IMG/VR virus record: IMGVR_UViG_2700989400_000004
Coordinates: 6,939 to 70,938 of that record
From: a virus
Lineage: Duplodnaviria > Heunggongvirae > Uroviricota > Caudoviricetes
Length of the DNA stretch: 64,000 bases
Direction: 5' to 3' (one strand)
The translations under genes and the position numbers were made by a program. Positions 1-20,859 of the stretch are shown here, in pieces. The first letter of the stretch is position 1. Each line of letters starts with the position of its first letter. Below the pieces are notes generated by a model, which saw only the letters and a list, made by a program, of their open reading frames with translations, did not search any database and had not been told where the DNA came from.

Positions 1-652
1 CATTGCGCGGCATCGCTTCGTAAATAATTTTTTGTGTCCCTTCCGGGATCATTTCAATGATCAGATACGCTTCCCTTCCGTCGTTACCAATACCTGCCGT
101 GCGCATCCGGTCACTCAGCCAGGTTTCTTTATAATTCATCTCCTCTGCCCTGGTGTTGGGGATTGGCTCGATATACCAGAGCGCCCCGTCTTTTTCGGTA
201 ATATGCGGTTTCATGGGGTCTGTTTTACCGGGTGATCCACCAGCTATTCCGATTCCTTCAGGAATGGTTTCCCCGCGCTCTGTCTGTTCGCGGATCCGTT
301 GCAGGTAGTCGCGCCAGTTCTCCGGCTCCCGGTCGGTGATGCCTTTGTATAATTTCGCATCCTGTACGCCAGCCAGCGCCAGCTTTTCAGCGATAGCATT
401 GATCTGGATTGGCTCTATCTCCCCCGCGATATAAACACGCGCAAAGCGGCGCTCATCGTCGATAATGCGGATATTAGCCAGATCTGCCAGTTGCGTTGGC
501 CCCAGGTAAACAGGTGGCACGTTATCGCCGTGTTTTCGTCCTTCGCTTTCAATCCAGTGTTGAGCATGGGCGTAAGCATCCGTCCCGGCAAAAATGATTA
601 CCTCGGTGAATTTATCCTTTGGCTGATATTTTAAATTCGGTGCGTTTTTCAC
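1..652 (-). CDS. hypothetical protein, N-terminal part only (gene continues past left edge); island replication-module candidate
   Basis: Stop-free minus frame from GTG at 652 to position 1 (absent from ORF track because its stop is outside the window); GTG overlaps stop of 649..939 (GTGA coupling); translation VKNAPNLKYQPKDKFTEVIIFAGTDAYAHAQHW... is protein-like. Confidence 0.35.
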   Translation of the reverse strand, partial: MKNAPNLKYQPKDKFTEVIIFAGTDAYAHAQHWIESEGRKHGDNVPPVYLGPTQLADLANIRIIDDERRFARVYIAGEIEPIQINAIAEKLALAGVQDAKLYKGITDREPENWRDYLQRIREQTERGETIPEGIGIAGGSPGKTDPMKPHITEKDGALWYIEPIPNTRAEEMNYKETWLSDRMRTAGIGNDGREAYLIIEMIPEGTQKIIYEAMPRN

Positions 653-939
653 TTCTTACCTCCCGCAACCAACATTGCCCGGATTTTTTTAATATTCGAG
701 GCTGCACGTCTTGCCACCGCCAATTGTTTGTTTTCCACCAGAATAAAATCACGCTCAAACTGACGGCGCGGCATTACGCAGTCATATTCGTAAGCCTCAC
801 GGCGGTAGGTGATATTGCCTGGCGTAACGTGACGAATAACCACTCGTCCCCCACGTCTGGTGTCGCGGTAAATATCGCCAGAGCGAATTGCAGACCGAGA
901 GAGGCCGCTGGCAGTAAAGCCAGAATTTTTCTTTTTCAT
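649..939 (-). CDS. hypothetical protein (island small gene, 96 aa)
   Basis: ORF with SD-like AGGAAA upstream of ATG at 939; tightly coupled to flanking genes. Confidence 0.4.
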   Translation of the reverse strand: MKKKNSGFTASGLSRSAIRSGDIYRDTRRGGRVVIRHVTPGNITYRREAYEYDCVMPRRQFERDFILVENKQLAVARRAASNIKKIRAMLVAGGKK

Positions 940-1136
940 GGTTTTATTTTCCTGTCAGCAGTTCCGGTTTTATTCCTGCACGAATACATAGTTCAGAAAA
1001 GCCTTCTACCGTACTTACAATTTCATTATTTCGCAGTCGGCATTGTGATTTCACTTTCCCTTTATCCAGGTAAACCAGTACGCGCCCGGTGAAATCATCT
1101 GGCACATTCAGGGTAATTGTCATTGTTGCTGGCTGA

Positions 1137-1502
1137 TTACCCATGACTTCCCCCCTGAATGATCCGGTAATCGCAACGGGTCAGCAGTTCGCTAAATTCC
1201 GGCAGTGTTCCGAAACAGCAATCATCACGCAGCCGTTCGCGGGATACCTCGACGCCGTTTTCGTAGTGACTCACCATGCGTCCGGTAAAATGCAGATCAT
1301 CATCGTGATGGTTCGTTAACGGCTTAATAAGTCGCGCACGTTCTGCCAGTTCCAGCAATGCTTCAACGCTTCCGGCAATTGCACCATCCGGCAGGTGATA
1401 ATTACTTACCACGCGTCCATTCTCCACGTTAACCAGTAGCTGCTCGGTGAATTTCTCACGAAACTGAATGCTGTTAAGGTCAGAAATTGACAGGTTATGC
1501 AT
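1137..1502 (-). CDS. hypothetical protein (121 aa)
   Basis: ATG at 1502 preceded by AGGAGG; start overlaps stop of upstream gene (ATGCATAA). Confidence 0.5.
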   Translation of the reverse strand: MHNLSISDLNSIQFREKFTEQLLVNVENGRVVSNYHLPDGAIAGSVEALLELAERARLIKPLTNHHDDDLHFTGRMVSHYENGVEVSRERLRDDCCFGTLPEFSELLTRCDYRIIQGGSHG

Positions 1503-1860
1503 GGTGCACCTCCTGGCGAATACGGGCAGCGAATACCATCACGCAGCCATCAGGAGATTGCTGACGCGCTTCCTGTTCGCTGGTGGCCTCGATGTGAATT
1601 ACGCGCGGTTGTGCTGTGCTCAGGGCGATAAAACGCCAGATAAAATTGTTCTCGCATTTCTGAATAAACAGCGTGTTTTCTTCGCGCCCTTTCCATGTTG
1701 CCGAGATATAGCCCATGTCATTGAGCATCTCGCAGGCATCAACCAGCGTATCAGCGGCTACGTGTACAGTGTTTTTACCGTCAGCTATGCAATCACGGTG
1801 CACCGCCAGGAAGGTGTATATAAATTTAGGGTGAGTTTGGGTATGCTGTGTTCCAGCCAT
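1495..1860 (-). CDS. hypothetical protein (121 aa), internal start of the long 1495..3081 frame
   Basis: ATG at 1860 with GAGGT 7 nt upstream; protein-like translation MAGTQHTQTHPKFIYTFLAVHRDC...; the frame upstream of 1860 is low-complexity. Confidence 0.45.
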   Translation of the reverse strand: MAGTQHTQTHPKFIYTFLAVHRDCIADGKNTVHVAADTLVDACEMLNDMGYISATWKGREENTLFIQKCENNFIWRFIALSTAQPRVIHIEATSEQEARQQSPDGCVMVFAARIRQEVHHA

Positions 1861-1925
1861 AATCGTTACCTCGTTTAACGGTTTGGTTAGACGCCCTGCA
1901 TGTGTGCCACCACTGCGGGGCGTTG

Positions 1926-1960
1926 CTGTATATACACCACAATCATTAGTGTATATACAG
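1926..1960. promoter_or_regulatory. operator-like palindrome in divergent promoter region
   Basis: Perfect 12-bp inverted repeat CTGTATATACAC (1926-1937) / GTGTATATACAG (1949-1960) with 11-bp spacer, between divergent genes ending 1860 and starting 2051; further ACACACC/GGTGT repeats at 2000-2030. Confidence 0.4.
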
Positions 1961-2050
1961 ATTAGATTTAAGTGTGCTACAGTGTCAAGTGTTTTATCAA
2001 CACACCTTTTGGTGTAATGTGTACACACCTCAAAATAACCGGACATTCTG

Positions 2051-2356
2051 ATGGCAACAGGAAACATCAACAGCAGATCGCAAATGAAAAATATCCGCTT
2101 CCCCCATGATGTAATCGAGGAAATGGAAAATTCGAAAACGGAAGGGGAAACAATAGCCGCTTTCGTGATTACAGCCGTTCGCGGTGAAATCGCCCGCCGC
2201 CAGGCAGAAGGAAGCGGAGAAAATCCCCTGGTTTCTTCGCTCGATGCACTGGCGCAGGTGGAAAAAATCGGTGTCAAAGCAGCCGAGGAGATCGGGCAAC
2301 TCGTCACCGTCGCGCGTGAAGAACTCCAGCGGCGCAAGGCCAAAGAACAGGAGTAA
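2051..2356 (+). CDS. small regulator-like protein (possible ribbon-helix-helix), 101 aa
   Basis: Protein-like ORF (…NIRFPHDVIEEMEN…EIGQLVTVAREELQRRKAKEQE); N-terminal beta-strand/helix pattern resembles RHH proteins; weak RBS. Confidence 0.4.
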   Translation: MATGNINSRSQMKNIRFPHDVIEEMENSKTEGETIAAFVITAVRGEIARRQAEGSGENPLVSSLDALAQVEKIGVKAAEEIGQLVTVAREELQRRKAKEQE

Positions 2357-3073
2357 CCATCACCAGCGCCGTGGTGTGAGGAACTACGGTGCATCGTTTT
2401 ACAGGGCAGCGCCATGACCAACAAAGAATCAACCAATACACCATCACCGGCACGGAAAAGACAGCGCAGAAAGATAGCGTACGAGCATGAGTCAGACAGA
2501 TTCGCGCCCTGTGCGTTTATCCTTGAGAAATTCCTTAAAGAGTACAGGCGCACAAAAATGGGGTCGCATACCTGGAAAACATCGCGGCATGGCGATGTTA
2601 AAGAGCAGGAATAGCCCACCAGCAAGCCAGCATATTCACCATAATGACCCTCAGTTAAACCTAGAGTCATTGGTGCAAAGCTGACACATTGCCCACCAGC
2701 CGCAAATGTGGCATTGTTGGTGATGCGTTCAAGTATGTAGCTTTTCCACTGGCGGCTCTCTGCGGTCGCCTTTGTTTTATCCAGAACGAAATCAGACATC
2801 AGATTGATCAGCACCTGGCGACCTGACAAAATCGCATCAGTCGCGCCACCAGCAGTATTTTTTGCTTTCCGGACAGCTTGGCCAACTGCATTTTGCAGCA
2901 AAATATTCTGCATTTCTGGCTTACTGTGATAACAGTGATCAGCGCCTTCACTCTGTACGACCACAACGCTATAATCTGCCTCGTAGACAGTAAGCAATAT
3001 GGCGCAGTAAGCGACTTGTTCACAAAGGCGCTCCGGCAACGGGGCGCTTTTTCTTTTTGTAACGGTCAGAGCA

Positions 3074-3874
3074 TTACACATGGCTGTTTTCCTCCATGCG
3101 ACGGGCTAACCAACGCTGCGAAAGACGAATTAATTCAGCTTTCCGCTGGTGGTAGTCCTGGCCTAACTCAATCAGCGTGATATTGCTCTGCTCAAGGTAA
3201 GAAAGATGCTCAAGCTGCAACGTGCTCATGTGGTCGCGTGGTTCGCCTGTGATGCCGTTCGCCTGCGCCCACTGTTTTGCAGTCATGCCACCCAGCACGA
3301 TACGCGCCAGCATATTGGCTTCCGTGGTGTAGTGGTGCTGTAGAGTGTTTTTACCCAGCTCAGCCCGGTACGCCTCCAGCGCGGCACACATTGGCTTAAA
3401 GTAGCTGGCAACTGTGATACGGGCTTTCAGTTCCCGGCGTAACACTGCGGAACGCACTGGCGCTACCTTGTGTAGCTCCTCCTCGCATTTGATAAAGTAC
3501 TGACGAACGGCGCGGCCCTGTTCGGTGCGTTCGACCATCGCCAGTTCTTTCGCCATGTTCACTGTGATGATGTACTCAAGAGCTGTTTGCTGGCGAGATT
3601 TTGCGCTCACCGGATCGGGTCGGCTCAAATATTCAACAACCTCATAATCCACGCCTTCCGTGAACCCGTATTCTTCAATGCGCCCCTTGATCCACGAACG
3701 GAAAACGCGCCCTACACCTAACGCCTTATGTAACGCTCTGGCGCTAACAATAGTGGTTTCACGCCCACCAATAACGCCGGAAATAACCGGAATAATTTCA
3801 GCGAAATTTTGCAGATTCTGTTTTTCAGGCCGAACGAAGCCCCGCCCCTGTACAGGCGTATATCCAGTATTCAT
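3074..3874 (-). CDS. phage antirepressor-like protein (Ant/KilAC-type)
   Basis: 266-aa ORF with N-terminal motif ALHKALGV…FRSWIK…YGFTEGVDY typical of phage antirepressor N-domains; sits downstream of alpA in the island. Confidence 0.5.
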   Translation of the reverse strand: MNTGYTPVQGRGFVRPEKQNLQNFAEIIPVISGVIGGRETTIVSARALHKALGVGRVFRSWIKGRIEEYGFTEGVDYEVVEYLSRPDPVSAKSRQQTALEYIITVNMAKELAMVERTEQGRAVRQYFIKCEEELHKVAPVRSAVLRRELKARITVASYFKPMCAALEAYRAELGKNTLQHHYTTEANMLARIVLGGMTAKQWAQANGITGEPRDHMSTLQLEHLSYLEQSNITLIELGQDYHQRKAELIRLSQRWLARRMEENSHV

Positions 3875-3926
3875 GGTTAAATCTCTGTATTAGTGGATGG
3901 GAGGCGGCTGTGTGCCGCCAGCCTGA

Positions 3927-4115
3927 TTAGTGAACTGCCTCGCGGCTGTCCTTCCATGCCAGAACTTCGGATAAAGACCAGCCAACGGAACGACCACCGA
4001 GTTTACGCCGTGATGGGAATTGTCCGGCTTTTTCCAGGCGGTAGCGGCATGAACGGCTCAGGCCTGTAAGTTGCTGACATTCTTTTTCACGTATAAAGCG
4101 ATCTGTGCTTAACAC
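3927..4115 (-). CDS. alpA: AlpA-family phage transcriptional regulator
   Basis: 62 aa, GTG start with AGGGGGA SD; motif LTGLSRSCRYRLEKAGQFPSRRKLGGRSVGWSLSEVLAW matches AlpA/Vis HTH family; immediately downstream of integrase. Confidence 0.7.
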   Translation of the reverse strand: MLSTDRFIREKECQQLTGLSRSCRYRLEKAGQFPSRRKLGGRSVGWSLSEVLAWKDSREAVH

Positions 4116-4478
4116 AATTCCCCCTTTGTTGTTTCTTAAAGAGTCATTGGGTGGATTATTGGGTTGGGTCGGATTGTGTCAGGGTGTTTATGGAATGGCA
4201 AACACTGGTGGCGGTCGTTTTACAGAAGTGGGGTAATGAGAATAAAAACTTTTTTAATTCATTGTGATGCAGTAGCGTAAAATTCTGTTTTTACGCCCTT
4301 TTTTACATGCTTTTAAGAGTGATTCGCCAATGTACAAAAAGCCAGTAAAACGACTGAAAATCAACTTTTTAGGGTGTCGGTCAGATGATAATCAAGTTTG
4401 TTCCAGATTGTTCGCCGTTGTTCGTCGTGGTGTCTCGTTGTTTCACGTTGTGTCCGTTCTGAAAAATCGCGAAAAAAA

Positions 4479-5729
4479 TTATATTTCTCTGGCTATTGGC
4501 AGTGTGGTTACGTTTTCGTGAGCACCTGCCAGTATCTCTAATCGCTCTGTCCACATATCCAGCGCGTTACGTTTCGCATCAATATAGCGGGAGTGGTTAT
4601 AGACTCGTTGCATCCCTGGCATCTGGTGGGCGGTAAGTTGCTCGACAATATGCGGATCCACGCCTAAATCGTTCAGCATCGTGGTAAACGTGCGCCGTAT
4701 ATCGTGCAGGGACCAGTGAGGATGGTTTAATTTTTTGTGCGTAAATCTGCCGTATTGTGACACGCTGGCTTCCTGTTTCAGTTCTCCGAGTAATAACCCT
4801 GTGTGCCTGTTCTGCTCCACCAGTTGCGTGACGAACGGCAAAATGCTTTCCGGTATTGGCCTGAATATGGCGACCTTCGTTTTGCTGTGTTCTTTCGGTA
4901 CCGTCCAGAGCATTTCCTTAAAATCCCACTCCCTGATCTCCGACAGCCTCAGTTCTCCAGTTCGGCAGCCAAACACAATCAGGAGGCGGATTAGCGCGCT
5001 GTAGTAGGGCGGGAATATTTTTTTATCCAGCGCCTGTAATAATTCGCCCAGTTCTTTGTTACTAAGCACGCGTTCGCTTATGCCTGGCTTTTTGCCAACG
5101 TCCACCACGTTGAGATCATCCAGAACGTTACTGACTGCGTAGCGACGTTTTCGGCAGAACTTAAGCGCCTGTTTACACGCCTGCATCATGTGACCAGACG
5201 TTACAGGGGATTTTTTGCGTATCCGGTCAAAACAGGCCAGCCAGTGACGTAACTCGCATTTATCCAGTGGCATATTGCCAATATGCTGTATGACGTGATT
5301 ATTCAGGCGGCTGTTCAGGGAGACGTAATCGACACGGTTTTCCTTTACGTGCATTTCCAGCCAGTAGCTGATCGCATCACCCACCGTTACCGGCTTTAGT
5401 GCTTCCTGTATGGAGTAATTAAGCTCATGGCGTGGATTTTTTCCTTCTGCCAGCCATGCGCGACACTGTGCCGCTTTTTCCCTGGCTGCTTTCAGGCTCA
5501 GATCAGGATAATTTCCCAGCTTCAGGCGTTCCGGTGATACCAGGCGTCCAGCTCCTGCCCTGTAGGTGAAATACCAGGTTAACAAGCCGCTGGTGGAATG
5601 CCTGACGCTCAGGTTTCCACCGTCATTAAGAAATGTGGTTTTTGGGGCTGGTGTGCCGTTGATTTTTCTTAGCTGTGTATCGCTCAGTTTGTTAAGTGCT
5701 CTGCTCATAATTTTGAATCCGGTCATCAC
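4479..5729 (-). CDS. int: P4-type tyrosine integrase (site-specific recombinase)
   Basis: 416-aa ORF; N-terminal arm-type domain (LSDTQLRKINGTPAPK…YPDLSLKAAREKAAQCRAWLAEGKNP) and C-terminal catalytic domain (…HDIRRTFTTML…); GTG at 5729 or ATG at 5726. Confidence 0.85.
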   Translation of the reverse strand: MMTGFKIMSRALNKLSDTQLRKINGTPAPKTTFLNDGGNLSVRHSTSGLLTWYFTYRAGAGRLVSPERLKLGNYPDLSLKAAREKAAQCRAWLAEGKNPRHELNYSIQEALKPVTVGDAISYWLEMHVKENRVDYVSLNSRLNNHVIQHIGNMPLDKCELRHWLACFDRIRKKSPVTSGHMMQACKQALKFCRKRRYAVSNVLDDLNVVDVGKKPGISERVLSNKELGELLQALDKKIFPPYYSALIRLLIVFGCRTGELRLSEIREWDFKEMLWTVPKEHSKTKVAIFRPIPESILPFVTQLVEQNRHTGLLLGELKQEASVSQYGRFTHKKLNHPHWSLHDIRRTFTTMLNDLGVDPHIVEQLTAHQMPGMQRVYNHSRYIDAKRNALDMWTERLEILAGAHENVTTLPIAREI

Positions 5730-5972
5730 AATTAACTACACCATTAACTACACCGATCATTGCACAAGGGGGTACAACGTGGAACAAATTGGAACAAGAA
5801 AAATTGCAATGAGTTTAAAAATCAAAAACATAATGAACAACGTGGCACATTATGAAACAGCAAAAAACACTAATTTATAAAATCACGATATTAATAATGT
5901 AACTTATATTTTCGTGAAATCTGTCACTGAAGAAAATTGGCAACTAAAGGTTAAAACCGTTATAACACAGTC

Positions 5973-6066
5973 ACCGGCGCAGAGGAGACAATGCCGGATT
6001 TAAGACGCGGATGCACTGCTGTGTGTACTGTAGAGTCTGGCGGATGTCGACAGACTCTATTTTTTT
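5973..6066 (+). ncRNA. mcaS: small regulatory RNA McaS (IsrA)
   Basis: ~94-nt unit convergent with abgR as in E. coli K-12; GGA-containing 5' region (AGAGGAGACAAUG); intrinsic terminator stem AGAGTCTG/CAGACTCT (6033-6058) plus T7 run; -10-like TATAAC at 5961-5966. Confidence 0.65.
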
Positions 6067-6074
6067 ATGCAGTT

Positions 6075-6983
6075 TTAACTTTGCAGATAGCCGCATTCTC
6101 GCCGGAATTGCGTGATTAATGACGCGGTCAGTGGTGTCTGGCGACTATCACGCCGCTGAATCAAATAATAGGCCGCTTTCGGTAAAATTTCGCTAACCGG
6201 CAACATCACCAGCCCCTGTCCGTGCAAGGGATCGCAGCCCATTTCTTCAGGCAGTATGCTGAGAAAATCGCTTTTTGCCACCAGACTGATACAGGCTGAG
6301 AACGTCTCGCAGACTACACCGACCTGTGGCGTTTGCGCCTGATCGTCAAGCAATTCACTCAACTGTTTGTAGTAGCTGCCGTGTGGCGTCGGCATTGTCC
6401 AGCTGTAATCCAGTAACTGTTTGATCGAACGGGCACCAATGGCGGGGTGTCCCGGGCGGCAAAAGATCGCGAATTGCTTTTCCAGTAATTTCTCAAAAGT
6501 AAATTCGTGGTCGTACGGTCCCTGATAATAGGTATTGATGGTGAAATCCAATTCTCCCTGACGCAATTCATTAATCATCGACACCAGTTGCCCTTCCATA
6601 ATGCGTACTTTTACCTGCGGATGCTGCTGATGAAAACGAGATATGACAGCTGGCATCAGACTGCGGGAAATACTGGCCCCCATGCCGATATTAATCTGCC
6701 CTGCCAGTTGCCCTTGTCGTTGGCGAATATCCTCTTGGGCTGCGCGCAGTTCTTCAAGAATAAGACTGGCGTGCTGATAAAAACTTTCACCGGCATCAGT
6801 TAACGTCACGCCTTTACTACGGCGAAAAAAGAGTTGCGCCGCTAATCCTTCTTCCAGCTCCTGAATAGATTTACTCAGTGCCGGTTGCGACATATTCAAC
6901 ATTCGGCTCGCTCCGCGAATGCTGCCCTGACGAGCCACTTCAACAAAAGCACGAATTTGATGAATTTTTACCTGAAAAGCCAT
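6075..6983 (-). CDS. abgR: LysR-family transcriptional regulator AbgR
   Basis: 302-aa ORF with N-terminal LysR HTH (…IRGASRMLNMSQPALSKSIQELE…) and substrate-binding domain; divergent from the abgA operon. Confidence 0.9.
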   Translation of the reverse strand: MAFQVKIHQIRAFVEVARQGSIRGASRMLNMSQPALSKSIQELEEGLAAQLFFRRSKGVTLTDAGESFYQHASLILEELRAAQEDIRQRQGQLAGQINIGMGASISRSLMPAVISRFHQQHPQVKVRIMEGQLVSMINELRQGELDFTINTYYQGPYDHEFTFEKLLEKQFAIFCRPGHPAIGARSIKQLLDYSWTMPTPHGSYYKQLSELLDDQAQTPQVGVVCETFSACISLVAKSDFLSILPEEMGCDPLHGQGLVMLPVSEILPKAAYYLIQRRDSRQTPLTASLITQFRRECGYLQS

Positions 6984-7158
6984 GACGCCACCGATAACCG
7001 TTATTTATCAGACCAAAGAAACTGGCATCTACTTTAATGCAGATGATTGTGTCAGGGTAATTTATGAACGGTTAAAACTGTGAAAAATCAGTTAGTGATA
7101 AGTAAAAACTATCGCTACGTGAACCGGGTCACACTTTTTACTGATGACGGGAAAGGTT

Positions 7159-8469
7159 ATGGAGTCTTTGAATCAATTTGTTAATTCGCTTGCCCCAAAA
7201 TTATCGCACTGGCGACGTGATTTTCATCACTATGCAGAGTCTGGCTGGGTGGAATTCCGCACTGCCACCCTTGTTGCGGAAGAATTGCAGCAGCTCGGCT
7301 ATTCACTGGCGCTGGGCCGCGAAGTAGTTAATGAAAGTAGCCGGATGGGACTACCTGATGAACTCACTCTACAACGCGAATTCGAGCGCGCTCGTCAACA
7401 GGGTGCGCTAGCACAATGGATTGCGGTTTTTGAAGGTGGTTTCACTGGTATCGTCGCCACCCTGGATACCGGTCGCCCCGGTCCGGTGATGGCTTTCCGT
7501 GTCGATATGGACGCGCTGGATCTCAGTGAAGAGCAGGATGTCAGCCATCGCCCCTACCGCGACGGTTTTGCGTCATGTAACGCCGGAATGATGCATGCCT
7601 GTGGTCATGATGGACATACCGCCATTGGGCTTGGGCTGGCGCATACCCTTAAACAATTCGAGTCCGGACTACATGGCGTCATCAAACTGATTTTTCAGCC
7701 TGCAGAGGAAGGTACGCGTGGCGCGCGGGCGATGGTCGATGCAGGTGTCGTAGATGATGTTGATTATTTTACTGCCGTGCACATTGGCACTGGCGTACCT
7801 GCGGGCACCGTGGTGTGCGGCAGTGATAATTTTATGGCAACCACCAAATTTGACGCGCACTTCACCGGTACCGCCGCTCACGCAGGCGCAAAACCAGAAG
7901 ACGGTCACAATGCCTTGTTGGCGGCAGCACAAGCCACTCTTGCACTGCATGCAATCGCCCCGCACAGCGAAGGAGCTTCCAGAGTAAACGTGGGCGTTAT
8001 GCAGGCAGGAAGCGGTCGTAACGTTGTTCCTGCCTCGGCGTTGCTGAAAGTGGAAACACGCGGGGCCAGCGACGTCATTAATCAATATGTTTTTGACCGT
8101 GCACAACAAGCGATTCAGGGCGCAGCAACCATGTATGGTGTCGGCGTTGAAACTCGTCTGATGGGTGCAGCTACCGCCAGTTCTCCTTCGCCGCAATGGG
8201 TCGCATGGTTGCAAAGTCAGGCGGCTCAGGTCGCGGGGGTCAATCAGGCCATTGAACGTGTTGAAGCGCCTGCGGGTTCCGAAGATGCCACATTAATGAT
8301 GGCCCGCGTGCAGCAACATCAAGGGCAAGCCTCCTACGTGGTGTTTGGCACACAGCTGGCGGCAGGTCATCACAACGAAAAATTCGATTTTGACGAGCAG
8401 GTTCTCGCTATTGCCGTCGAAACGCTGGCGCGCACCGCGCTCAATTTTCCCTGGACGCGAGGTATCTGA
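7159..8469 (+). CDS. abgA: p-aminobenzoyl-glutamate hydrolase subunit A (M20 peptidase family)
   Basis: Start at MESLNQFVNSLAPKL with GGGAAAGG SD; M20 metal-binding motifs (…MHACGHDGH…); stop overlaps abgB start. Confidence 0.9.
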   Translation: MESLNQFVNSLAPKLSHWRRDFHHYAESGWVEFRTATLVAEELQQLGYSLALGREVVNESSRMGLPDELTLQREFERARQQGALAQWIAVFEGGFTGIVATLDTGRPGPVMAFRVDMDALDLSEEQDVSHRPYRDGFASCNAGMMHACGHDGHTAIGLGLAHTLKQFESGLHGVIKLIFQPAEEGTRGARAMVDAGVVDDVDYFTAVHIGTGVPAGTVVCGSDNFMATTKFDAHFTGTAAHAGAKPEDGHNALLAAAQATLALHAIAPHSEGASRVNVGVMQAGSGRNVVPASALLKVETRGASDVINQYVFDRAQQAIQGAATMYGVGVETRLMGAATASSPSPQWVAWLQSQAAQVAGVNQAIERVEAPAGSEDATLMMARVQQHQGQASYVVFGTQLAAGHHNEKFDFDEQVLAIAVETLARTALNFPWTRGI

Positions 8470-9914
8470 TGCAGGAAATCTATCGTTTTATCGACGATGC
8501 GATTGAAGCCGATCGCCAACGTTATACCGATATTGCCGATCAAATCTGGGATCATCCAGAAACACGTTTTGAAGAGTTCTGGTCAGCGGAGCATCTGGCT
8601 TCGGCGCTGGAATCTGCAGGCTTCACCGTTACCCGCAACGTAGGCAATATCCCAAATGCCTTTATTGCTTCGTTTGGTCAAGGCAAACCGGTTATCGCCC
8701 TGCTGGGAGAATATGACGCCCTGGCAGGTTTAAGTCAGCAAGCAGGTTGCGCGCAACCTACATCCGTGACGCCCGGTGAAAATGGTCACGGTTGCGGACA
8801 CAATTTGCTGGGAACCGCCGCCTTTGCCGCTGCAATAGCCGTCAAGAAATGGCTGGAACAATATGGGCAAGGCGGCACAGTGCGCTTTTATGGTTGTCCT
8901 GGCGAAGAAGGCGGCTCGGGTAAAACGTTCATGGTCCGCGAGGGGGTATTTGATGATGTGGATGCGGCACTCACCTGGCACCCGGAAGCCTTTGCCGGTA
9001 TGTTCAATACACGCACGCTGGCAAACATTCAGGCATCATGGCGCTTTAAAGGGATCGCAGCACATGCCGCGAATTCCCCTCATTTGGGACGCAGCGCCCT
9101 TGATGCCGTAACGTTGATGACCACTGGCACCAACTTCCTCAACGAACATATTATTGAAAAAGCGCGCGTACACTATGCCATCACAGATAGCGGCGGGATC
9201 TCGCCCAACGTGGTCCAGGCGCAGGCAGAAGTGCTTTATCTTATCCGTGCCCCCGAAATGACCGACGTGCAGCATATTTATGATCGGGTCGCCAAAATCG
9301 CCGAATGTGCGGCATTGATGACCGAAACCACGGTTGAATGCCGCTTCGACAAAGCCTGTTCCAGTTATCTCCCGAATCGCACCTTAGAAAATGCCATGTA
9401 CCATGCCCTATCCCATTTTGGTACCCCGGAATGGAACTCCGAAGAACTGGCTTTTGCGAAACAAATTCAGGCTACGCTCACCCCCAACGATCGGCAAAAC
9501 AGTCTGAATAATATCGCCGCAACCGGTGGCGAAAACGGCAAGGTTTTTGCACTACGTCATCGTGAAACGGTACTGGCGAATGAGGTCGCTCCATATGCCG
9601 CCACCGATAACGTGCTTGCGGCATCGACTGATGTCGGCGACGTCAGTTGGAAACTGCCTGTTGCCCAGTGTTTCAGCCCCTGTTTTGCCGTCGGTACACC
9701 GCTACATACGTGGCAACTGGTTAGCCAGGGGCGAACATCTATTGCTCATAAAGGAATGCTGCTGGCGGCGAAAACTATGGCAGCAACCACAGTCAATCTC
9801 TTCATTGATTCAGGGCTATTGCAAGAATGCCAACAAGAGCATCAGCAAGTTACGGACACGCAACCGTATCACTGCCCTATCCCGAAAAACGTGACACCGT
9901 CACCTTTAAAATAA
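8469..9914 (+). CDS. abgB: p-aminobenzoyl-glutamate hydrolase subunit B (M20 peptidase family)
   Basis: 481-aa ORF with M20 signature (…GHGCGHNLLGT…), coupled to abgA. Confidence 0.9.
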   Translation: MQEIYRFIDDAIEADRQRYTDIADQIWDHPETRFEEFWSAEHLASALESAGFTVTRNVGNIPNAFIASFGQGKPVIALLGEYDALAGLSQQAGCAQPTSVTPGENGHGCGHNLLGTAAFAAAIAVKKWLEQYGQGGTVRFYGCPGEEGGSGKTFMVREGVFDDVDAALTWHPEAFAGMFNTRTLANIQASWRFKGIAAHAANSPHLGRSALDAVTLMTTGTNFLNEHIIEKARVHYAITDSGGISPNVVQAQAEVLYLIRAPEMTDVQHIYDRVAKIAECAALMTETTVECRFDKACSSYLPNRTLENAMYHALSHFGTPEWNSEELAFAKQIQATLTPNDRQNSLNNIAATGGENGKVFALRHRETVLANEVAPYAATDNVLAASTDVGDVSWKLPVAQCFSPCFAVGTPLHTWQLVSQGRTSIAHKGMLLAAKTMAATTVNLFIDSGLLQECQQEHQQVTDTQPYHCPIPKNVTPSPLK

Positions 9915-9950
9915 CAACAACAACGCAAACACAACAACCGAGGAATGCCC

Positions 9951-11396
9951 ATGAGTATGTCATCCATACCGTCGTCCTCCCAATCCGGGAAGCTCTATGG
10001 CTGGGTCGAAAGAATTGGTAACAAGGTTCCCCATCCTTTTTTGCTCTTTATCTATTTGATAATCGTACTCATGGTGACGACGGCAATTTTGTCAGCCTTT
10101 GGCGTCAGTGCGAAAAACCCGACCGATGGTACGCCGGTGGTGGTGAAAAACCTGCTCAGTGTGGAAGGATTACACTGGTTTTTACCCAATGTGATTAAAA
10201 ACTTTAGCGGTTTTGCTCCACTTGGAGCGATCCTGGCGCTGGTTTTAGGTGCCGGCCTAGCGGAGCGCGTCGGCTTACTGCCAGCGCTAATGGTTAAAAT
10301 GGCATCGCATGTTAATGCCCGCTACGCCAGTTATATGGTGCTGTTTATTGCTTTTTTCAGCCACATTTCTTCCGATGCGGCGTTAGTGATCATGCCACCG
10401 ATGGGTGCGCTGATTTTTCTGGCGGTGGGCAGGCATCCAGTTGCAGGTTTACTGGCTGCCATTGCAGGCGTAGGTTGCGGCTTTACGGCTAATTTACTGA
10501 TTGTCACAACCGACGTGTTGCTGTCGGGGATCAGCACGGAAGCGGCGGCTGCGTTCAATCCGCAAATGCACGTCAGTGTAATTGATAACTGGTATTTTAT
10601 GGCCAGCTCCGTAGTCGTACTGACGATTGTTGGCGGCCTGATAACCGACAAAATCATCGAGCCACGATTAGGTCAATGGCAGGGAAACAGCGATGAGAAA
10701 CTGCAGACATTGACCGAAAGTCAGCGTTTTGGTTTACGCATAGCAGGTGTCGTATCGCTACTTTTTATTGCTGCGATCGCGCTGATGGTGATCCCGGAAA
10801 ACGGGATATTGCGCGATCCGATTAATCACACCGTGATGCCATCACCCTTTATTAAAGGTATCGTGCCACTGATCATTCTTTTTTTCTTTGTTGTCTCGCT
10901 GGCTTATGGCATCGCTACCCGCACAATTCGACGTCAGGCGGATTTACCGCATTTAATGATTGAACCGATGAAAGAGATGGCGGGATTTATCGTGATGGTT
11001 TTTCCCCTCGCCCAATTTGTCGCCATGTTTAACTGGAGCAACATGGGGAAATTCATCGCCGTGGGGCTGACCGATATACTTGAAAGTTCAGGGCTTAGCG
11101 GCATCCCGGCGTTTGTCGGTCTGGCGTTGCTTTCCTCTTTCTTATGCATGTTTATTGCCAGCGGTTCCGCAATCTGGTCGATTCTGGCCCCCATTTTCGT
11201 ACCAATGTTTATGCTACTTGGCTTTCACCCGGCATTTGCGCAAATCCTCTTTCGTATTGCCGACTCATCCGTATTGCCTTTAGCGCCGGTATCTCCTTTT
11301 GTTCCACTGTTTCTTGGATTCCTGCAACGCTACAAACCAGACGCAAAACTGGGTACTTACTATTCGTTAGTCTTGCCCTATCCGCTTATCTTTTGA
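9951..11396 (+). CDS. abgT: p-aminobenzoyl-glutamate transporter AbgT
   Basis: Start MSMSSIPSS… with GAGGA SD; polytopic membrane protein; C-terminal end abuts the prophage boundary. Confidence 0.85.
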   Translation: MSMSSIPSSSQSGKLYGWVERIGNKVPHPFLLFIYLIIVLMVTTAILSAFGVSAKNPTDGTPVVVKNLLSVEGLHWFLPNVIKNFSGFAPLGAILALVLGAGLAERVGLLPALMVKMASHVNARYASYMVLFIAFFSHISSDAALVIMPPMGALIFLAVGRHPVAGLLAAIAGVGCGFTANLLIVTTDVLLSGISTEAAAAFNPQMHVSVIDNWYFMASSVVVLTIVGGLITDKIIEPRLGQWQGNSDEKLQTLTESQRFGLRIAGVVSLLFIAAIALMVIPENGILRDPINHTVMPSPFIKGIVPLIILFFFVVSLAYGIATRTIRRQADLPHLMIEPMKEMAGFIVMVFPLAQFVAMFNWSNMGKFIAVGLTDILESSGLSGIPAFVGLALLSSFLCMFIASGSAIWSILAPIFVPMFMLLGFHPAFAQILFRIADSSVLPLAPVSPFVPLFLGFLQRYKPDAKLGTYYSLVLPYPLIF

Positions 11397-11488
11397 ATGG
11401 GTAGTTTATTGTAAAATATATTTATATTCAATGCGTTATGTTTTATTTTTGATTTTGATTTATCAATTTGGTCACTATTTGGTACACA

Positions 11489-11516
11489 AAAAGAAACGAG
11501 GCGTTAGCCTCGTTTC
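11489..11516 (-). terminator. intrinsic terminator downstream of tail-fibre gene
   Basis: Stem GAAACGAGGC/GCCTCGTTTC with GTTA loop; T-run on minus strand (ttctttttgtg) just after the tail-fibre stop. Confidence 0.5.
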
Positions 11517-11545
11517 GCGCGGCGATGTTCTTCGCACATCACCTT

Positions 11546-13630
11546 TTACTCTTCGCTTCCGGTCAACTGCTTAACAAGCGCAACCAGTTCGCTTACCTGA
11601 TTTTCAAGCGCGGTAATGCGTGCATCTTGAGTAACTATGGCTATATCTTGATCCTTACATACTCTGACGAGATATCCAACGATGCCGGAGTAATTAACAC
11701 CCAAAACAATTTTTTCACCAGTAAGCACGGTGCCGTCACTTGTCGGTCCTGGCATCTCTTTTGTTATTGTTACTTCGCGAACTACTTGCGGCAATATCTT
11801 TTGCCATTCCTGTGCTATAACACCAGCGCACGCCCTATTATCACCAATAAAATTGAATGTATATCCGTTAACGTGCTGCAATAATTTTCTGGCCTCCTGT
11901 ATTTCCATAATATTTTCTTTTTCATTTATATCTGATGTTTGTGTTAATTCTGAGCAGGAGACTTTACCGGATGTGAAGATATCTGCGGTTGATGTTATTT
12001 TTTGTGAGAAGTTGGCTGTTGCTGTTACGTTCATTTTTCCAGCAAATACAGCGTTGGAGTCCGACTGAAGTTTTGTTTTTGCTCTTACTGTACCTGCGGT
12101 TATTGTTGTTGGCGATGATAACTGCTCCGCATAGGATTGCGCATTGGCTTCTGATTCTGCGGCTGCGGCTGCTGCTGCTGCTGCGTTTTCCGCTTCAGAT
12201 GTTGCGGTGGCGGCACGCTCTTCAGCCAGCACGCTGTAACCCTCTGCAGCGTCTCTCGCGGCTATGGCTTCATCCCGCGCGCTGGTCGCTGTGTTAGCGG
12301 CGCTGGTCGCGGCGGTCGCGGCACTGGTAATGGTAGCCGCCTGTTCAGTTGCAGTGGTTGCCTGCGCCACTGCTTCATCGCGGGCCGCTTCAGTGGCGGT
12401 CTGCGCGGTCTGTGCCGCTTCTGCGGCTTGGGTGGCGGCGGTTGCTTTTTGGGTTGCTGTATTTACGGCGGCTGATATCTTCGATTCGTCTATAGCAATA
12501 CTACTAGCGCTTGCTTCCGCTGCTTCTGCGGCGGTTTCTGCGTCGTTTTTATGCTCAAGCGCTGCGGCGGCGGCAGTGGTTGCCTCATTCGCTTTTTGGG
12601 TCGCTGTGTTAGCGGCGCTGGTCGCGGCGGTCGCGGCACTGGTAATGGTAGCCGCCTGTTCAGTTGCAGTGGTTGCCTGCGCCACTGCTTCATCGCGGGC
12701 CGCTTCAGTGGCGGTCTGCGCGGTCTGTGCCGCTTCTGCGGCTTGGGTGGCGGCGGTTGCTTTTGCTGCCAGTTCTTTTTCATCGATAGCGATATTAGCG
12801 GCGGTTGTTTCTGCTGCTGCGGCTGCGGCTTCGGATTTCTCCGCTTCTTCCTTCGCATACATGCGCAATTCATAAACAGCGGCACGATCTGCCGCTACGG
12901 CTTCGGCATCTGTATTGGCTGCTGCGGCGGCTTGGGTGGCGGCTGACGCCTGTTCAGTTGCTACTGTTGCTCGTTCAGTTGCGACGACTGCTCTCGCGGT
13001 AGCTTCGTCGCGTGCTGCTTCGGTAGCAGTCTGCGCGGTCTGTGCGGCGGTGGCGGCATTGGTGGCGGTAGTAGCTTGTTCGGTCGCTACGGTTGCCTGT
13101 GTGGCGGCGGTGGCGGCTTGTTCACCAGCCAGCACGCTGTAACCTTCTGCGGCATCTTTCGCGGCAATAGCTTCATGCCGCGCGGCGGCGGTTGTTTCAA
13201 CGTCTGCGGCGGTGGCGGCGGCGTTGGCGGTTGATTGCGCTGTTTCTGCCTGAATAGCGGTTAACAGTGCTTCTACCTGCGCGGCATCACCATAATTTTT
13301 CCAGTATTCAACGGCGGCATAGATCTCTGATTCCTGCCCGGTGAAATAGCGTAATGCTTCCGCTACGTCTTGCGCCAGCCCGTCAACTGAGATCGAATCG
13401 CACAGTAAAATACTGTAAGCAGTACCCGCCGGAATATCCGGTGATGCTGCCGGGGTTATAGATAATTCCGTTTCACTGACAATTTCAGTGATGGAAAAGA
13501 TCTGAATAGGGTCGCTTTTTACAATAACTGTGCACCCCACGCGGATCATGGATAAGGGTGCTTTAAAATTTGTACCCGTCCCGGTCAGCGTGTTACCGGA
13601 TACGGCAATACTTCCAATGGTGTAGATCAT
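11546..13630 (-). CDS. tail fibre protein with Ala/Thr-rich repeat rod
   Basis: 694-aa ORF; long A/T-rich internally duplicated segment; C-terminal globular domain (…GYTFNFIGDNRACAGVIAQEW…); last gene of tail module. Confidence 0.7.
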   Translation of the reverse strand: MIYTIGSIAVSGNTLTGTGTNFKAPLSMIRVGCTVIVKSDPIQIFSITEIVSETELSITPAASPDIPAGTAYSILLCDSISVDGLAQDVAEALRYFTGQESEIYAAVEYWKNYGDAAQVEALLTAIQAETAQSTANAAATAADVETTAAARHEAIAAKDAAEGYSVLAGEQAATAATQATVATEQATTATNAATAAQTAQTATEAARDEATARAVVATERATVATEQASAATQAAAAANTDAEAVAADRAAVYELRMYAKEEAEKSEAAAAAAETTAANIAIDEKELAAKATAATQAAEAAQTAQTATEAARDEAVAQATTATEQAATITSAATAATSAANTATQKANEATTAAAAALEHKNDAETAAEAAEASASSIAIDESKISAAVNTATQKATAATQAAEAAQTAQTATEAARDEAVAQATTATEQAATITSAATAATSAANTATSARDEAIAARDAAEGYSVLAEERAATATSEAENAAAAAAAAAESEANAQSYAEQLSSPTTITAGTVRAKTKLQSDSNAVFAGKMNVTATANFSQKITSTADIFTSGKVSCSELTQTSDINEKENIMEIQEARKLLQHVNGYTFNFIGDNRACAGVIAQEWQKILPQVVREVTITKEMPGPTSDGTVLTGEKIVLGVNYSGIVGYLVRVCKDQDIAIVTQDARITALENQVSELVALVKQLTGSEE
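12286..12449. repeat. direct repeat copy 1 inside tail-fibre gene (~164 bp)
   Basis: Near-identical to 12600-12763; encodes repeated …AAQTAQTATEAARDEAVAQATTATEQAATITSAATAATSAANTAT…. Confidence 0.6.
12600..12763. repeat. direct repeat copy 2 inside tail-fibre gene (~164 bp)
   Basis: Near-identical copy of 12286-12449, offset 314 bp in the same frame. Confidence 0.6.
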
Positions 13631-13663
13631 CGCAATGACTCCATTATGTTAATTAACGGAATA

Positions 13664-13678
13664 ATTCTACCATTTTGT
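13664..13678 (-). promoter_or_regulatory. conserved motif TTTTGTGATCTGYGT upstream of late gene (copy 1 of 3)
   Basis: Same 15-mer at 19964-19978 and (1 mismatch) 25932-25946, each under 50 nt upstream of a minus-strand start (tail fibre, L, tape measure). Confidence 0.35.
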
Positions 13679-13812
13679 GATCTGCGTTGCATTTTATGCT
13701 TGCACAAAATGTATTTATTGATTTATGCCAATACAATAAATCATTTACAGTGAATGTAACTTGCCACAATTTATGATGTAAATTATTGGCGTAAAAATAA
13801 AAACAATGCATA

Positions 13813-13836
13813 AAAACGGGGCTTATGCCCCGTTTT
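13813..13836. terminator. bidirectional intrinsic terminator after J
   Basis: Perfect hairpin CGGGGC-TTAT-GCCCCG flanked by T/A runs on both strands, immediately after the J stop. Confidence 0.5.
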
Positions 13837-13840
13837 ATTT

Positions 13841-16800
13841 TTATGCTGTAGTTGATGCGCTAAATGATCCTGTTCCTCTTGATACTAGCATTGTCGGAGA
13901 ATACAAAGCCATACAATATGAGTAGCCTTCTGATGCTGATGTTTGTGGGCAATATATTTCCCCGGTAATCCTTGATGTTGTTAAACCAGAAAAAGCGCAT
14001 TGCACTGTTAATGTGCATCCACCATAAGGTACGTAGTATTGAATTGTTTTACTTTGACCTCCGCAACTAAACGTTACGTTATAAGTTGATCTATATTCAC
14101 CAGATGTCAATGTAATCGTTGCCATAAGCATAACTGATTTCGTCAATGCACTGGTTGTGCTGTCGTTATATGTGATGGTTGCTTTATAACTTCCGTTATA
14201 CCCAAGTACTCGATCTGGACCAACACCCATGTTAGCAACGTCACCAACAAATGATGTGGCTTCAACTACTCCCTTAAATTTACCGTCAGTTGCGTTAATA
14301 GTACCATTAAACACCCCAGAATTAGCGTATACCGTGCCGCGTACTGTTACGTTATTAAATTCAGCGTTACCATTCTTATTAATCATCCACCCGGCGGAAC
14401 CGGAAACATAATTGGATGATTGGATTTGCTGCGCAATTTTTGCGGTAGTAATCGATGCGTCTTTAATAAACGCTTCGCGCACATACATTGCACCATTCGT
14501 AACATAGAAAGGTGTCGTATATGTGCCGTTTGCCGCCGTCATTAACACAAAGCGGTCAACAAGGAAAATGCACTGCGATTGTGTGCTTGTGCCGCTGCCA
14601 GTCAGGCCAAGCGAGATACCGGAAAAATATTTCATTCCGTTACTGTCTGCGGCGATCTTAACGCTCCACGTTGCCGACATGTCTGATTCAAGGCTGGTGA
14701 TAGCGGTTTTGTTTTCCTCAATTGATACTGATTGCCCCTCAATTGACGCCGTGATACTTTCGATCTGTGTGGCGGTCGATTCCTGGTAAGACGTAAACGC
14801 TTCGCTCCACTCCGTAATCGACGCCTCGTTTGCTTCCAGTGATGCGCTAATCTGCGCAAACTGTGTAGCGTTGGCTTGTTCATGTGTGGCTAATGCCTGA
14901 TCCACGCTGCTGATCGCTGATGAGATATCGCCGTCTACTTTCGCCTCAAGGTTATTGATGGATTCAGCCGTGGATGATTCCAGATCGGTGATTGTCTGGT
15001 TGATCTCCGTTAAGCTGGCCTGGATATCCTCGTTTACCTGGCTTTCCAGTTTTTCGATTGATTGGCTTGTTGAGCTTTCAAGCGTCGCGATGGTCTGCTG
15101 TAGTTCGGTTACGTTAGCGCTGATTTCGTCATTAACCTTGCTTTCAAGCGTGGTAAGCGCCTGCGCGGTCGCTTCCTTCTCTGTAGCAATAACTGAATCA
15201 ATGCGCTCGATTTCCGCCTTCGTTTCTGCTTTCTGGTTTTTATATTGCGCCGTTAACGTGGTGCGGGTGCTGGTGTTAGCCAATGAGTTATTCATAAGCG
15301 CAATGGCTGCGTTTTGCAGGCTGGCGCGGGTCTGCATTAGCTCGTTTTCTTGCTCCGTCAATTCTACGCTGATTTCGTTAATCTGGCTTTCATGCTCCCC
15401 GATCCCGTCCTCGTTGTTTTTTACACGTTCTTCCAGATCGGCGGTTGACTCCTTCAGGTCGGTAACAGCCTGGTCAATGTCTACCGTGGTTTGTTTCAGT
15501 TCTTCCACGTCACCCATTAAACCGCCTGTTACTTCGCCTATGGAGTCCTTGATCATGTTCTGGAATTGCTCGCCTTCCATAACTTCATTCAGCACGGCGT
15601 CTGTAATTTCCTCGAAGTTTTCGGAAGGTTTACCGCTGGCTTCGATAAAGTCAGATACACCGAAAGCGTTTTTTGTGCGCACGTAAACGTAATACGTATG
15701 GCCCGTTGCCATACCGCCGAAGGTCCATTGATACCCGCGCCCGGTGAATTGCGCTGATGTTGTTACCTGGCTGAAGTCAGTGATCTGGTTTTCTCCGGCA
15801 TAATAGAATTCGTAACTGGTATCGGTCGTTAGCGTGGTGCTGCTGATCGGGTAAACAGTCGCCTGGAAAACACCTGGCACCCAATTAACGCCGACCGGGG
15901 CCGCTGGCGCACCAATCACCAGATCTACAATACTTTCCGCCCCCTTCATGCCAGTGTCATTACGCCCGCGAATACCCAACGTGTAATTCCCTGCGTCGAG
16001 GCCATAAAATTCATAACGGTAATTCGTGGTTTCATAACTTGCCACCACGCGCCCGTCTGCGTTATATACGCGGATTTCGAAGGTCAGGGGATGCGTTGTT
16101 GTCTGCGTCTCCCAGGTGGCGCGGCATTGAACCGTTTCTGACCCAACGTTTACCACTTTCAAATTTTCGATGTTCGGGACACGGAAGTGATTTAGCGTGT
16201 CGCTACTGATTTCGAAGATTGCGCCTTCATCGACTACCGCCTGTTTGTTCGGGTCGTGCTGCGCGGCTTCGATGGTGTATACGCTGTTATTTTCGGTTTC
16301 GGCTACGCTGGTGATCCGGCATAAAACGGGTTTTGCTGCTTCAGTGGATACAGCGAAAACGGTCCCGTTACGAATCCACGCCGGGGCCGCCGCTAAGGTG
16401 ATCTCATTTCCATTCACCCCGGTGATCTGGTGTTTTTTAAATTTGCCATCACTATCGAGCAAGCTGATGGTGTCGCCTGCGGTGATGTATTCTGAATCAA
16501 CCTTATCGACCGTTATCACCTTGCCATTGTTCGCCACGATACGACCGCCTAAACGAGCGCCCGCGCGGTTATTGTCGAGGATCTCGATGATATCCCCTGG
16601 TGTAAAGTGAATCGCGTCACGGGCCATTTTAAACGTGAATTTTGACGGCTCGCGTTTTGCTGTTTCTATCAGCCACTTGCCCGCGCGGTACGCTTGCCCG
16701 CGTGATGTGCACCCGAACGCCTCTAACGTGGTTTCGTTGTAACCATCACGGGCGATCAGTTCATCGTCTGCTACATACTCTTTTGATTGCTCCCAGCCGT

Positions 16801-18022: not shown

Positions 18023-18035
18023 AGTAACCCCCTTA

Positions 18036-19240: not shown

Positions 19241-19242
19241 AA

Positions 19243-19947: not shown

Positions 19948-20076
19948 TTTCTCACCTTCTGATTTTGTGATCTGCGTCACGCTAAATCATACCAAAATGG
20001 ATTGATCGCGGTTTATACAATATGTATATTTTACTCAAACGGAAGCACAGTTAACAAAATGGCGCGGAGGTGTGAG

Positions 20077-20232: not shown

Positions 20233-20244
20233 GAGGTTAACGAA

Positions 20245-20592: not shown

Positions 20593-20601
20593 GGCGGCAA
20601 T

Positions 20602-20850: not shown

Positions 20851-20859
20851 GCGGTAATT

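Follow-up and report, generated by a model that had tools for sequence, protein, structure and literature searches.

A phage-inducible chromosomal island of the EcCICFT073 type at an intergenic attachment site between smrA and mcaS of Escherichia coli

The integrase and mcaS genes

The DNA stretch analysed here, 64,000 nucleotides long and referred to as the window, exhibits the E. coli abgT-abgB-abgA-abgR-mcaS locus and, next to mcaS on the opposite strand, an intact gene (int) for a 409-aa tyrosine integrase (Table 1). The int frame begins at a GTG codon (position 5729) in a program-made list of open reading frames. We use the ATG at 5708, where RefSeq starts the protein of strain 442/2, which is 100% identical. 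Pfam searches identified an Arm-DNA-bind_3 (DUF4102) domain in the N-terminal part of the protein (64.9 bits, cut-off 27) and a Phage_integrase domain in the C-terminal part (60.7 bits, cut-off 27.1), with a Phage_int_M domain present below the cut-off. Judged from these domains, Int is a tyrosine integrase of the Arm-DNA-bind_3 ("P4-type") class.

The mcaS gene in the window shows no mismatch to its K-12 counterpart over the aligned columns, and a permissive Rfam scan of positions 5400-6200 returned McaS and no other RNA. The int start had been placed about 240 bp from mcaS in the initial annotation, with no tRNA or tmRNA gene in between. Both statements hold: the gap is 264 bp when counted from the ATG and 243 bp when counted from the GTG, and ARAGORN finds no tRNA or tmRNA gene in the whole window. 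A CRP-like palindrome, read from the sequence, lies upstream of the mcaS promoter and is kept even in B2 strains. CRP reportedly activates mcaS. The promoter itself is a candidate placed by its spacing to the known 5' end only, since a simple sigma-70 consensus scan of 5650-6120 called no promoter. Literature searches pairing mcaS with an integrase or an integration site returned nothing relevant.

Table 1. Features of the int-mcaS region and of the adjoining island, in window coordinates (L001 coordinates refer to strain 442/2)
Feature	Position	Strand	Basis or remark
Right-hand part of PICI	1..5882	-	Homology to island-free genomes starts at 5883
DUF927 primase/helicase-like replication gene, 5' part, cut by window edge	1..652	-	L001 13520-15652
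icd-like gene	1495..1716	-	RefSeq annotation of 442/2; 3' end of 528-codon open frame 1495-3081
AntA/AntB-type antirepressor gene	3074..3874	-	Pfam PF08346 2.3e-23; PHROG anti-repressor
alpA, AlpA-family excisionase/activator	3927..4115	-	Pfam PF05930 3e-18; 61/62 residues identical to EcCICFT073 AlpA
int	4479..5708	-	Pfam PF13356 7.5e-18, PF00589 1.9e-16; PHROG 1 integrase
P-arm doubled motif ATTAACTACACC x2, putative arm-type Int binding site	5731..5754	+	Exact second copy at L001 7718-7741
Rest of attP P arm, ending in core-type half-site TTATAAAA (5875-5882)	5755..5882	+	Island DNA
attR core TCACGATATTAATAAT	5883..5898	+	Three-way alignment; host match from 5883 in thousands of genomes
Inferred 7-bp strand-exchange segment TCACGAT	5883..5889	+	Within attR core
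Host half-site ATTAATAA	5890..5897	+	Within attR core
CRP-like palindrome cGTGA-N6-TCACt	5913..5928	+	Read from sequence; upstream of mcaS promoter
Inferred mcaS promoter TTGGCA, 18 nt, TATAAC	5937..5966	+	Position relative to Rfam/K-12 5' end at 5973
mcaS (isrA) small RNA gene	5973..6068	+	Rfam RF00115, 118.4 bits (gathering score 42)
abgR	6075..6983	-	RefSeq annotation of matching genomes; convergent with mcaS

Extent and gene content of the island

The window holds the right-hand part of an island (about 5.9 kb), the remainder lying beyond its left edge. None of the complete genomes covers more than 77% of window positions 1-25000. For the far end we turned to strain 442/2, with 99.9% identity over window positions 1-7000; the left end in the genome of the window itself is assumed to be intact. 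In 442/2 the island is delimited to about 13.2 kb between smrA and mcaS/abgR (L001 about 7644-20887; L001 15652 corresponds to window position 652). Every recognised island gene reads leftward, away from mcaS and, in the sense direction, toward smrA. In 442/2 the genes follow each other, all on one strand, as int, alpA, antA, the icd-like gene, DUF4222, the DUF927 primase, ProQ/FinO, perC and genes without assignment. The complete DUF927 protein of this strain is 710 aa long and matches Pfam DUF927 (2e-40) as well as a PHROG DNA primase (2e-84). Within the 528-codon frame of which the icd-like gene forms the 3' end, PHROG matches are confined to residues ~457-528. No Pfam or PHROG match to structural or lysis families was found among the ORFs scanned in the 442/2 island, and six ORFs at its left end are altogether matchless. 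The window also contains a lambdoid prophage, 5.5 kb away.

The attachment site in the smrA-mcaS spacer

The island junctions were set by a three-way alignment of the left junction of 442/2 (attL), the right junction in the window (attR) and the empty site of K-12 (attB). Host homology breaks at TCACGATATT[A/T]ATAAT, and attL and attR share an identity block of 10 bp, TCACGATATT, at positions 5883-5892. The attB of K-12 reads GATTATTCAT TCACGAT ATTAATAATG, attL reads ...TTATTCAT TCACGAT ATTTATAATTAAATG..., and attR (window 5875-5899) reads TTATAAAA TCACGAT ATTAATAATG. A 241-bp probe of the right junction matches 5385 of the 5426 complete E. coli genomes, and the island-free matches begin exactly at 5883. 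Across the same 5426 genomes, attR is spanned in 68 and attL in 67.

The comparison with the empty locus that had been proposed earlier thus puts the junction at 5883, both in island-free genomes and in K-12, and the second att copy expected at the far end of the island was found beside smrA in strain 442/2. Neither island end exhibits a tRNA gene, so that integration beside mcaS and not at a tRNA is confirmed. The suspicion that the att core lies in the promoter-proximal region of mcaS proved correct as well: the core is located at -90 to -75 from mcaS +1, with the centre of its 7-mer TCACGAT 87 bp upstream of the mcaS start. It sits within the 226-bp spacer of the divergent smrA and mcaS genes, just outside the CRP-like palindrome and the candidate -35 and -10 elements.

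From these junctions attP is deduced to be TTATAAAA/TCACGAT/ATTTATAA, which would consist of inverted core-type half-sites around 7 bp identical to attB. The register of the 7-mer is taken from the attP of CFT073, a perfect palindrome (TGATAAAA/TATGTCC/TTTTATCA), the same register giving TTATAAAA/N7/ATTTATAA here. The 10-bp identity block would permit four registers of a 7-bp overlap, and the one adopted was chosen by symmetry arguments only. The AT-rich attB palindrome was also considered as a Fur-box-like sequence or a site for another host regulator, and this reading was dropped.

The same site is found in the literature. For EcCIEC2733.1, a phage-inducible chromosomal island (PICI), Fillol-Salom et al. 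(2018, ISME J, Table S1; PMC6092414) give the att core ACATTATTAATATCGTGA and the att gene "lysR-smrA". This core is the reverse complement of window positions 5883-5900, and abgR, encoding a LysR-family regulator, is the "lysR" of the published name. As far as the published entry goes, EcCIEC2733.1 exhibits an identical att core, the same flanking genes (abgR, smrA) and a comparable size class (10.5 kb vs 13.2 kb), whereas the entry comes without mcaS, arm repeats or a 7-bp register. Eight PICI attC sites were counted in E. coli by these authors (PMC6092414). Seven of the eight att cores are described by the names of protein-coding genes, and the eighth, that of EcCIDI14, is an IS110 transposase gene (PMC6092414). 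The view that a non-tRNA target is unusual therefore has to be given up, such targets being normal for PICIs. Site, element family and the use of non-tRNA targets have all been published before; mcaS is unmentioned in PMC6092414.

Tandem repeats inside the island

The tandem that had been noticed beside the int start is an exact doublet of ATTAACTACACC. The motif has just four exact copies in the 37-kb surrogate locus, two at each island end, and with up to 2 mismatches allowed its count was never matched in 100 shuffles. From the end of the int-proximal tandem to the centre of the 7-mer it is 132 bp, and from there to the start of the distal tandem, which has the same orientation, 78 bp. This 132/78 bp spacing is invariant in four attachment-site types.

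There are arguments for a reading in which the att core would be the AATTAACTACACCATTAACTACACC tandem and the island would end at about 5755. The tandem forms an exact 25-nt direct repeat present at both ends (family D1, copies 13,018 bp apart), no longer direct repeat being found on either side of the island, and the same sequence, in reverse complement, is given as the "att site core" of EcCIDI14 (PMC6092414, Table S1). This direct repeat was our first candidate for the core, and it was ruled out by the alignment with the K-12 empty site. The 128 bp between the tandem and 5883 (5755-5882) are absent from roughly 5300 island-free genomes and accompany the islands to yifB, ISEc45 and roxA-phoQ. 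The stretch of about 75 bp that separates the second tandem from the host junction is likewise island DNA. Furthermore, the two halves of the ISEc45 gene split by EcCIDI14 abut TCAC and not the tandem. The empty-site comparison thus refutes AATTAACTACACCATTAACTACACC as the core. The tandem is located 132-155 bp inside the island, where it behaves as an arm-type repeat.

The fixed 132/78 bp spacing, together with the doubled-motif layout known from the attP of helper-embedded PICIs (HE-PICIs), suggests that the tandem pair corresponds to putative arm-type Int sites. HE-PICI attP (Williams lab, NAR Genom Bioinform 2023; PMC10111431) exhibits a doubled co-oriented motif twice, at 132 +/- 2 and 81 +/- 2 bp from the crossover centre, and the HE-PICI integrase clade is also similar in its repeated target switching (PMC10111431). 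The two systems differ in the core of the motif, TGTATTGC there and ACTACACC here, and in their targets, which are prophage late genes in HE-PICIs and chromosomal sites here. In the present PICI family it is accordingly the 7-bp core, and not the more striking tandem, that should define the island boundaries. The published "att core" of EcCIDI14 is a putative arm repeat, and those of the yejM-luxR PICIs probably are arm repeats too.

A PICI rather than a P4-type satellite

By its sequence features, the int-bearing element is a Gram-negative PICI of the EcCICFT073 type and not a P4-type satellite. About 13.2 kb separate the att repeats (attL at L001 7637, attR at window 5883), within the about 8-15 kb expected of PICIs. 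The layout is that of a PICI, with int at one end, alpA next and unidirectional genes, and the DUF927 primase provides the replication module. The att core, identical to the published lysR-smrA core, is of the kind unused by prophages. Int is 86% identical (353/409) to its EcCICFT073 counterpart and 98% to that of EcCIDI14, but shares only 23% with P4 Int; AlpA and its EcCICFT073 counterpart are 98% identical (61/62). Among phage records, none has an Int with more than 49% identity to that of the window, and among the matches listed 10 of 10 yifB-junction rows and all mcaS-site rows fall on island-type annotation. EcCIDI14, a relative, carries capsid, decoration and small-terminase genes.

EcCICFT073 is the prototype, studied experimentally, and resides at the roxA/ycfD-phoQ site. 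Its P arm is 88% identical to that of the window and contains the same ATTAACTACACC x2; the arm-to-core geometry and the one-directional gene layout are the same. The differences are in the central 7-mer (TATGTCC vs TCACGAT here), in the half-sites (TGATAAAA/TTTTATCA vs TTATAAAA/ATTTATAA here), in the chromosomal site and in the cargo.

The element had been described as a "P4-like island", which would make it a P4-type satellite, i.e. a P2-dependent phasmid, away from its usual tRNA target. The part of this description that stands is the P4-type domain architecture of the integrase (Arm-DNA-bind_3 plus Phage_integrase). P4 is also a small helper-dependent element with a DUF4102/Arm-DNA-bind_3 integrase and repeats in its attP arms (one next to int is entered in the P4 record as an "attP arm sequence repeat"), and AlpA and a large primase-like gene occur in the island as they do in P4 relatives. 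The rest of the description does not stand. P4-like elements are recognised by a close P4 Int and a tRNA 3' end as target; the alignment of P4 Int with the window Int exhibits its 23% identity over 72% of the protein (E = 9e-6), and the tRNA target is missing at both ends. Pfam and PHROG searches of the ten largest island ORFs left of the window in 442/2 found no match to Psu, Sid, Delta/Ogr or Epsilon. The high identities of Int and AlpA are to EcCICFT073, which its authors set apart from P4. A P4-type satellite is thus highly improbable, and we retain the assignment to PICIs.

Related islands at other targets

The P arm was recovered in 707 genomes. One at least 90% identical to that of the window is present in 98 genomes: 68 have it at smrA-mcaS, 27 in yifB and at least one in ISEc45. 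The K-12 yifB site, GGATATTCAT ATCCGCT ATTGATAATG, exhibits the same half-sites as the mcaS attB around another central 7-mer, and the attP of the yifB islands is TTATAAAA/ATCCGCT/ATTTATAA. The yifB island of TUM9757 has an Int identical to the window Int at 398 of 409 residues and to EcCIDI14 Int at 403 of 409, an identical arm tandem, and a P arm 97.3% identical to that of the window. At smrA-mcaS itself, islands differ in their replication module (DUF927, DNA primase or RepA helicase), which points to independent insertions.

EcCIDI14 splits the ISEc45 transposase gene. Its junctions are CATCAAC/TCACGAT/ATTTATAA and TTATAAAA/TCAC/AGCGATG, with TCAC only shared between attL and attR. Read from these junctions, EcCIDI14 is an off-target insertion of an element with an mcaS-type attP (TCACGAT). 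Its host, clone D i14, is presumably an ST73, phylogroup B2 strain. In one B2-type genome, the ST131-like "strain 131", the smrA-mcaS attB is present in a diverged form, TCACAAG/ACAAATGA, and abgRAB has been replaced. A diverged smrA-mcaS attB in B2 strains may be the reason why EcCIDI14 landed off target.

Such insertions raise the question of whether smrA-mcaS is itself a secondary site, the integrase being directed primarily to yifB or some other locus, given the 97% identical Ints in yifB and the 98% identical Int in an IS gene with a shared core of 4 bp. We regard this as very unlikely. The smrA-mcaS spacer is the commonest site of the sub-clade (68 vs 27 of the 98 genomes), the attP 7-mer of the islands located there matches that attB exactly, and different cargo and replication modules occupy the site. 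The ISEc45 case, a real off-target insertion, carries the mcaS-type 7-mer.

Integrases 97-98.5% identical to each other and having the same arms thus reside in yifB or in an IS gene, their attP differing only in the 7-bp central segment. For yifB and smrA-mcaS alike, the attP 7-mer matches that of the target (ATCCGCT and TCACGAT, respectively). Within Int, residues 53 and 221 alone track the site among the five sequences compared. In phage lambda, a match between attP and attB in the 7-bp overlap is reportedly required, and a change of the overlap is said to alter site preference (saf variants). Off-target insertion of lambda is similar in that the overlaps of attL and attR differ, as they do in EcCIDI14 (TCACGAT vs TCACAGC). 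Unlike lambda, whose integrase belongs to another family, the PICI variants are natural lineages and not laboratory mutants. The yifB/mcaS pattern, seen in a handful of sequences, is what would be expected if exchange needs identity of the 7-bp overlap and new targets are reached via a new overlap, and is suggestive of such a mechanism. We give an even chance to the proposal that, in this one sub-clade of PICI integrases, the 7-bp central segment of attP would set the chromosomal address almost entirely. If so, the clade would be a natural series of site-affinity variants, and the integrase could be re-addressed to any TATTCAT-N7-ATTRATAA sequence by editing seven bases. The mcaS/yifB/IS trio is a clean natural data set on how a tyrosine integrase changes its target.

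A search for the P-arm-end pattern in one genome per species returned 41 loci and no new target sites: 39 are chance matches in AT-rich genomes, one comes from Shigella and is of the CFT073 type, and one, from Klebsiella, is without arm repeats. A longer P-arm pattern searched on IMG/VR identified eight roxA-phoQ junctions, one ISEc45 junction and nothing else.

Integration model and relation to mcaS

Taken together, these results lead us to propose, with a probability of roughly 0.88, that the element is a PICI of the EcCICFT073 kind integrated site-specifically at an intergenic attB of the smrA-mcaS spacer. Site-specific recombination by the tyrosine recombinase would bring the island into attB (GATTATTCAT/TCACGAT/ATTAATAATG), strand exchange presumably taking place at cleavage positions inside the 7-bp TCACGAT common to attP and attB. 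The N-terminal Arm-DNA-bind_3 domain would bind the co-oriented ATTAACTACACC tandems as a pair of arm-type sites, with AlpA probably acting in excision and activation. A helper phage would be needed for mobilisation, as has been demonstrated for EcCICFT073.

The island interrupts no gene, and the mcaS promoter and the CRP-like site are in place. The promoter being apparently unaffected, we predict no effect of the insertion on mcaS. One may still ask whether the small RNA is the point of the site choice, the insertion rewiring mcaS/smrA regulation or the CRP-controlled region serving the expression of int. Several observations could be read in this way: the closeness of the core (75-90 bp) to mcaS +1, the new arrangement of int and mcaS as divergent neighbours 264 bp apart, and the transcription of the island toward smrA in the sense direction. 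In addition, a protein with a ProQ/FinO domain is encoded by this family of islands, and an association of McaS/IsrA with ProQ is reported (PMC4824073). The CRP-like site, the -35 and -10 elements and the McaS RNA itself are unaltered, however, and no island gene reads toward mcaS. Moreover, islands of the same integrase clade are found in a protein-coding gene, in an IS gene and in the roxA-phoQ spacer, with the ProQ/FinO gene present at these sites as well. These varied targets, the presence of ProQ/FinO at them and the unaltered mcaS region argue for a target choice by DNA sequence alone, and a site choice centred on the small RNA appears unlikely.

The proximity of the island to mcaS is thus most probably incidental: the mcaS promoter is intact, the island is transcribed away from mcaS, and the same clade selects, on sequence alone, a protein-coding gene, an IS gene or another spacer. 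The finding stands, but it is an ordinary one: a PICI at an attachment site already on record. For genome annotation it is worth knowing that about 1% of E. coli genomes have a mobile-element junction 75 bp from mcaS.

Integration junctions and integrase specificity

The 'att core' published for EcCIDI14, a PICI in an ISEc45 gene, is the arm tandem, i.e. the doubled motif located inside the island beside int. The true EcCIDI14 junctions interrupt the ISEc45 transposase gene and have only TCAC in common, with the attP-type 7-mer TCACGAT at attL and the target-type TCACAGC at attR. Judged from the sequences, these differing 7-mers are the signature expected of mismatched, off-target recombination. 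The 'cores' listed for the yejM-luxR PICIs, which are tandem-like (TTTGTAGTTATACG x2), may also be arm repeats.

Five integrases (those of the window, strain 442/2, EcCIDI14, TUM9757 and ETEC1748), being at least 94% identical, were compared. The first three belong to elements with a TCACGAT attP and the last two to elements at the yifB site. Among these five, the only positions separating the two classes are A53/T53 and G221/S221 (codons within window 4479-5708). Of the differences between the ETEC1748 integrase and that of the window, 17 are concentrated in residues 1-60 (the arm-binding domain), and the P-arm repeats of ETEC1748 are changed as well (ATGACTACACC / AGTGACTACACC).

The two attP arms remain alike past the tandem: positions 7717-7785 and 20735-20803 (= window 5730-5798) of the 442/2 locus are 78% identical over 69 nt, and the block GGAACAAAT.G.ACAAG is common to both. 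This similarity suggests that additional putative protein-binding sites, perhaps for IHF, AlpA or Xis, occur in duplicate, one set in each arm. The clustered CGTAGT(T/G) repeats of the 442/2 island look like opposite-strand versions of the arm motif; the cluster is not conserved in EcCIDI14.

Coordinates of the features and loci discussed (L001, 442/2 locus)
Feature	Window	Other coordinates	Remark
ProQ/FinO-domain protein gene of the PICI family		L001 12503-13033	outside window
Four inverted CGTAGT(T/G) repeats, clustered (cgtagttaatcgtagtggctaccgtagtagcttccgtagttgag)		L001 7879-7925	~240-290 bp inside attL, 442/2 island
528-codon open frame	1495-3081 (-)	L001 16495-18081	no interruption
mcaS locus of ST131-like strain		NZ_CP093011 1835591-1841693 (L007)	
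Large lambdoid-type prophage	11395-64000		continues beyond window end
EcCIDI14		NC_017652 245000-264000 (L005)	

Neighbourhood of mcaS

PMC4824073 reports McaS/IsrA from a particle that also contains ProQ. The association of the ProQ/FinO gene with the adjoining sRNA gene mcaS is probably coincidental, since the island at yifB carries the same ProQ/FinO-domain gene. The locus of the ST131-like strain lacks abgR, abgA and abgB, and its abgT is reduced to a fragment; an AraC-family regulator gene with HlyD and MFS genes occupies the left side. It retains mcaS and the mcaS promoter, with divergence in the first stem of McaS RNA and in the PICI attB.

The prophage carries tail fibre, host-specificity J and tape measure genes, with replication and LexA-like repressor genes at its right end. 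Its left boundary falls within the 3' end of abgT (an ORF of 483 aa versus 508), the last position homologous to the prophage-free strain 442/2 being window 11394. For its right part (52-64 kb), matches of 80-95% identity occur in just 35 of the 5426 complete genomes. Located 5.5 kb from the PICI, this prophage could be a candidate helper.

Long open frame beside antA

The 528-codon frame shows translational coupling with its neighbours, overlapping antA by 8 nt and the next ORF likewise by 8 nt. Homologues are confined to the final ~70 residues (Icd-like). The rest of the product is rich in Ser/Cys and looks like an antisense translation of YlcI/YnfO, the gene annotated on the plus strand. 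Chance would not be expected to yield an open frame of this length.
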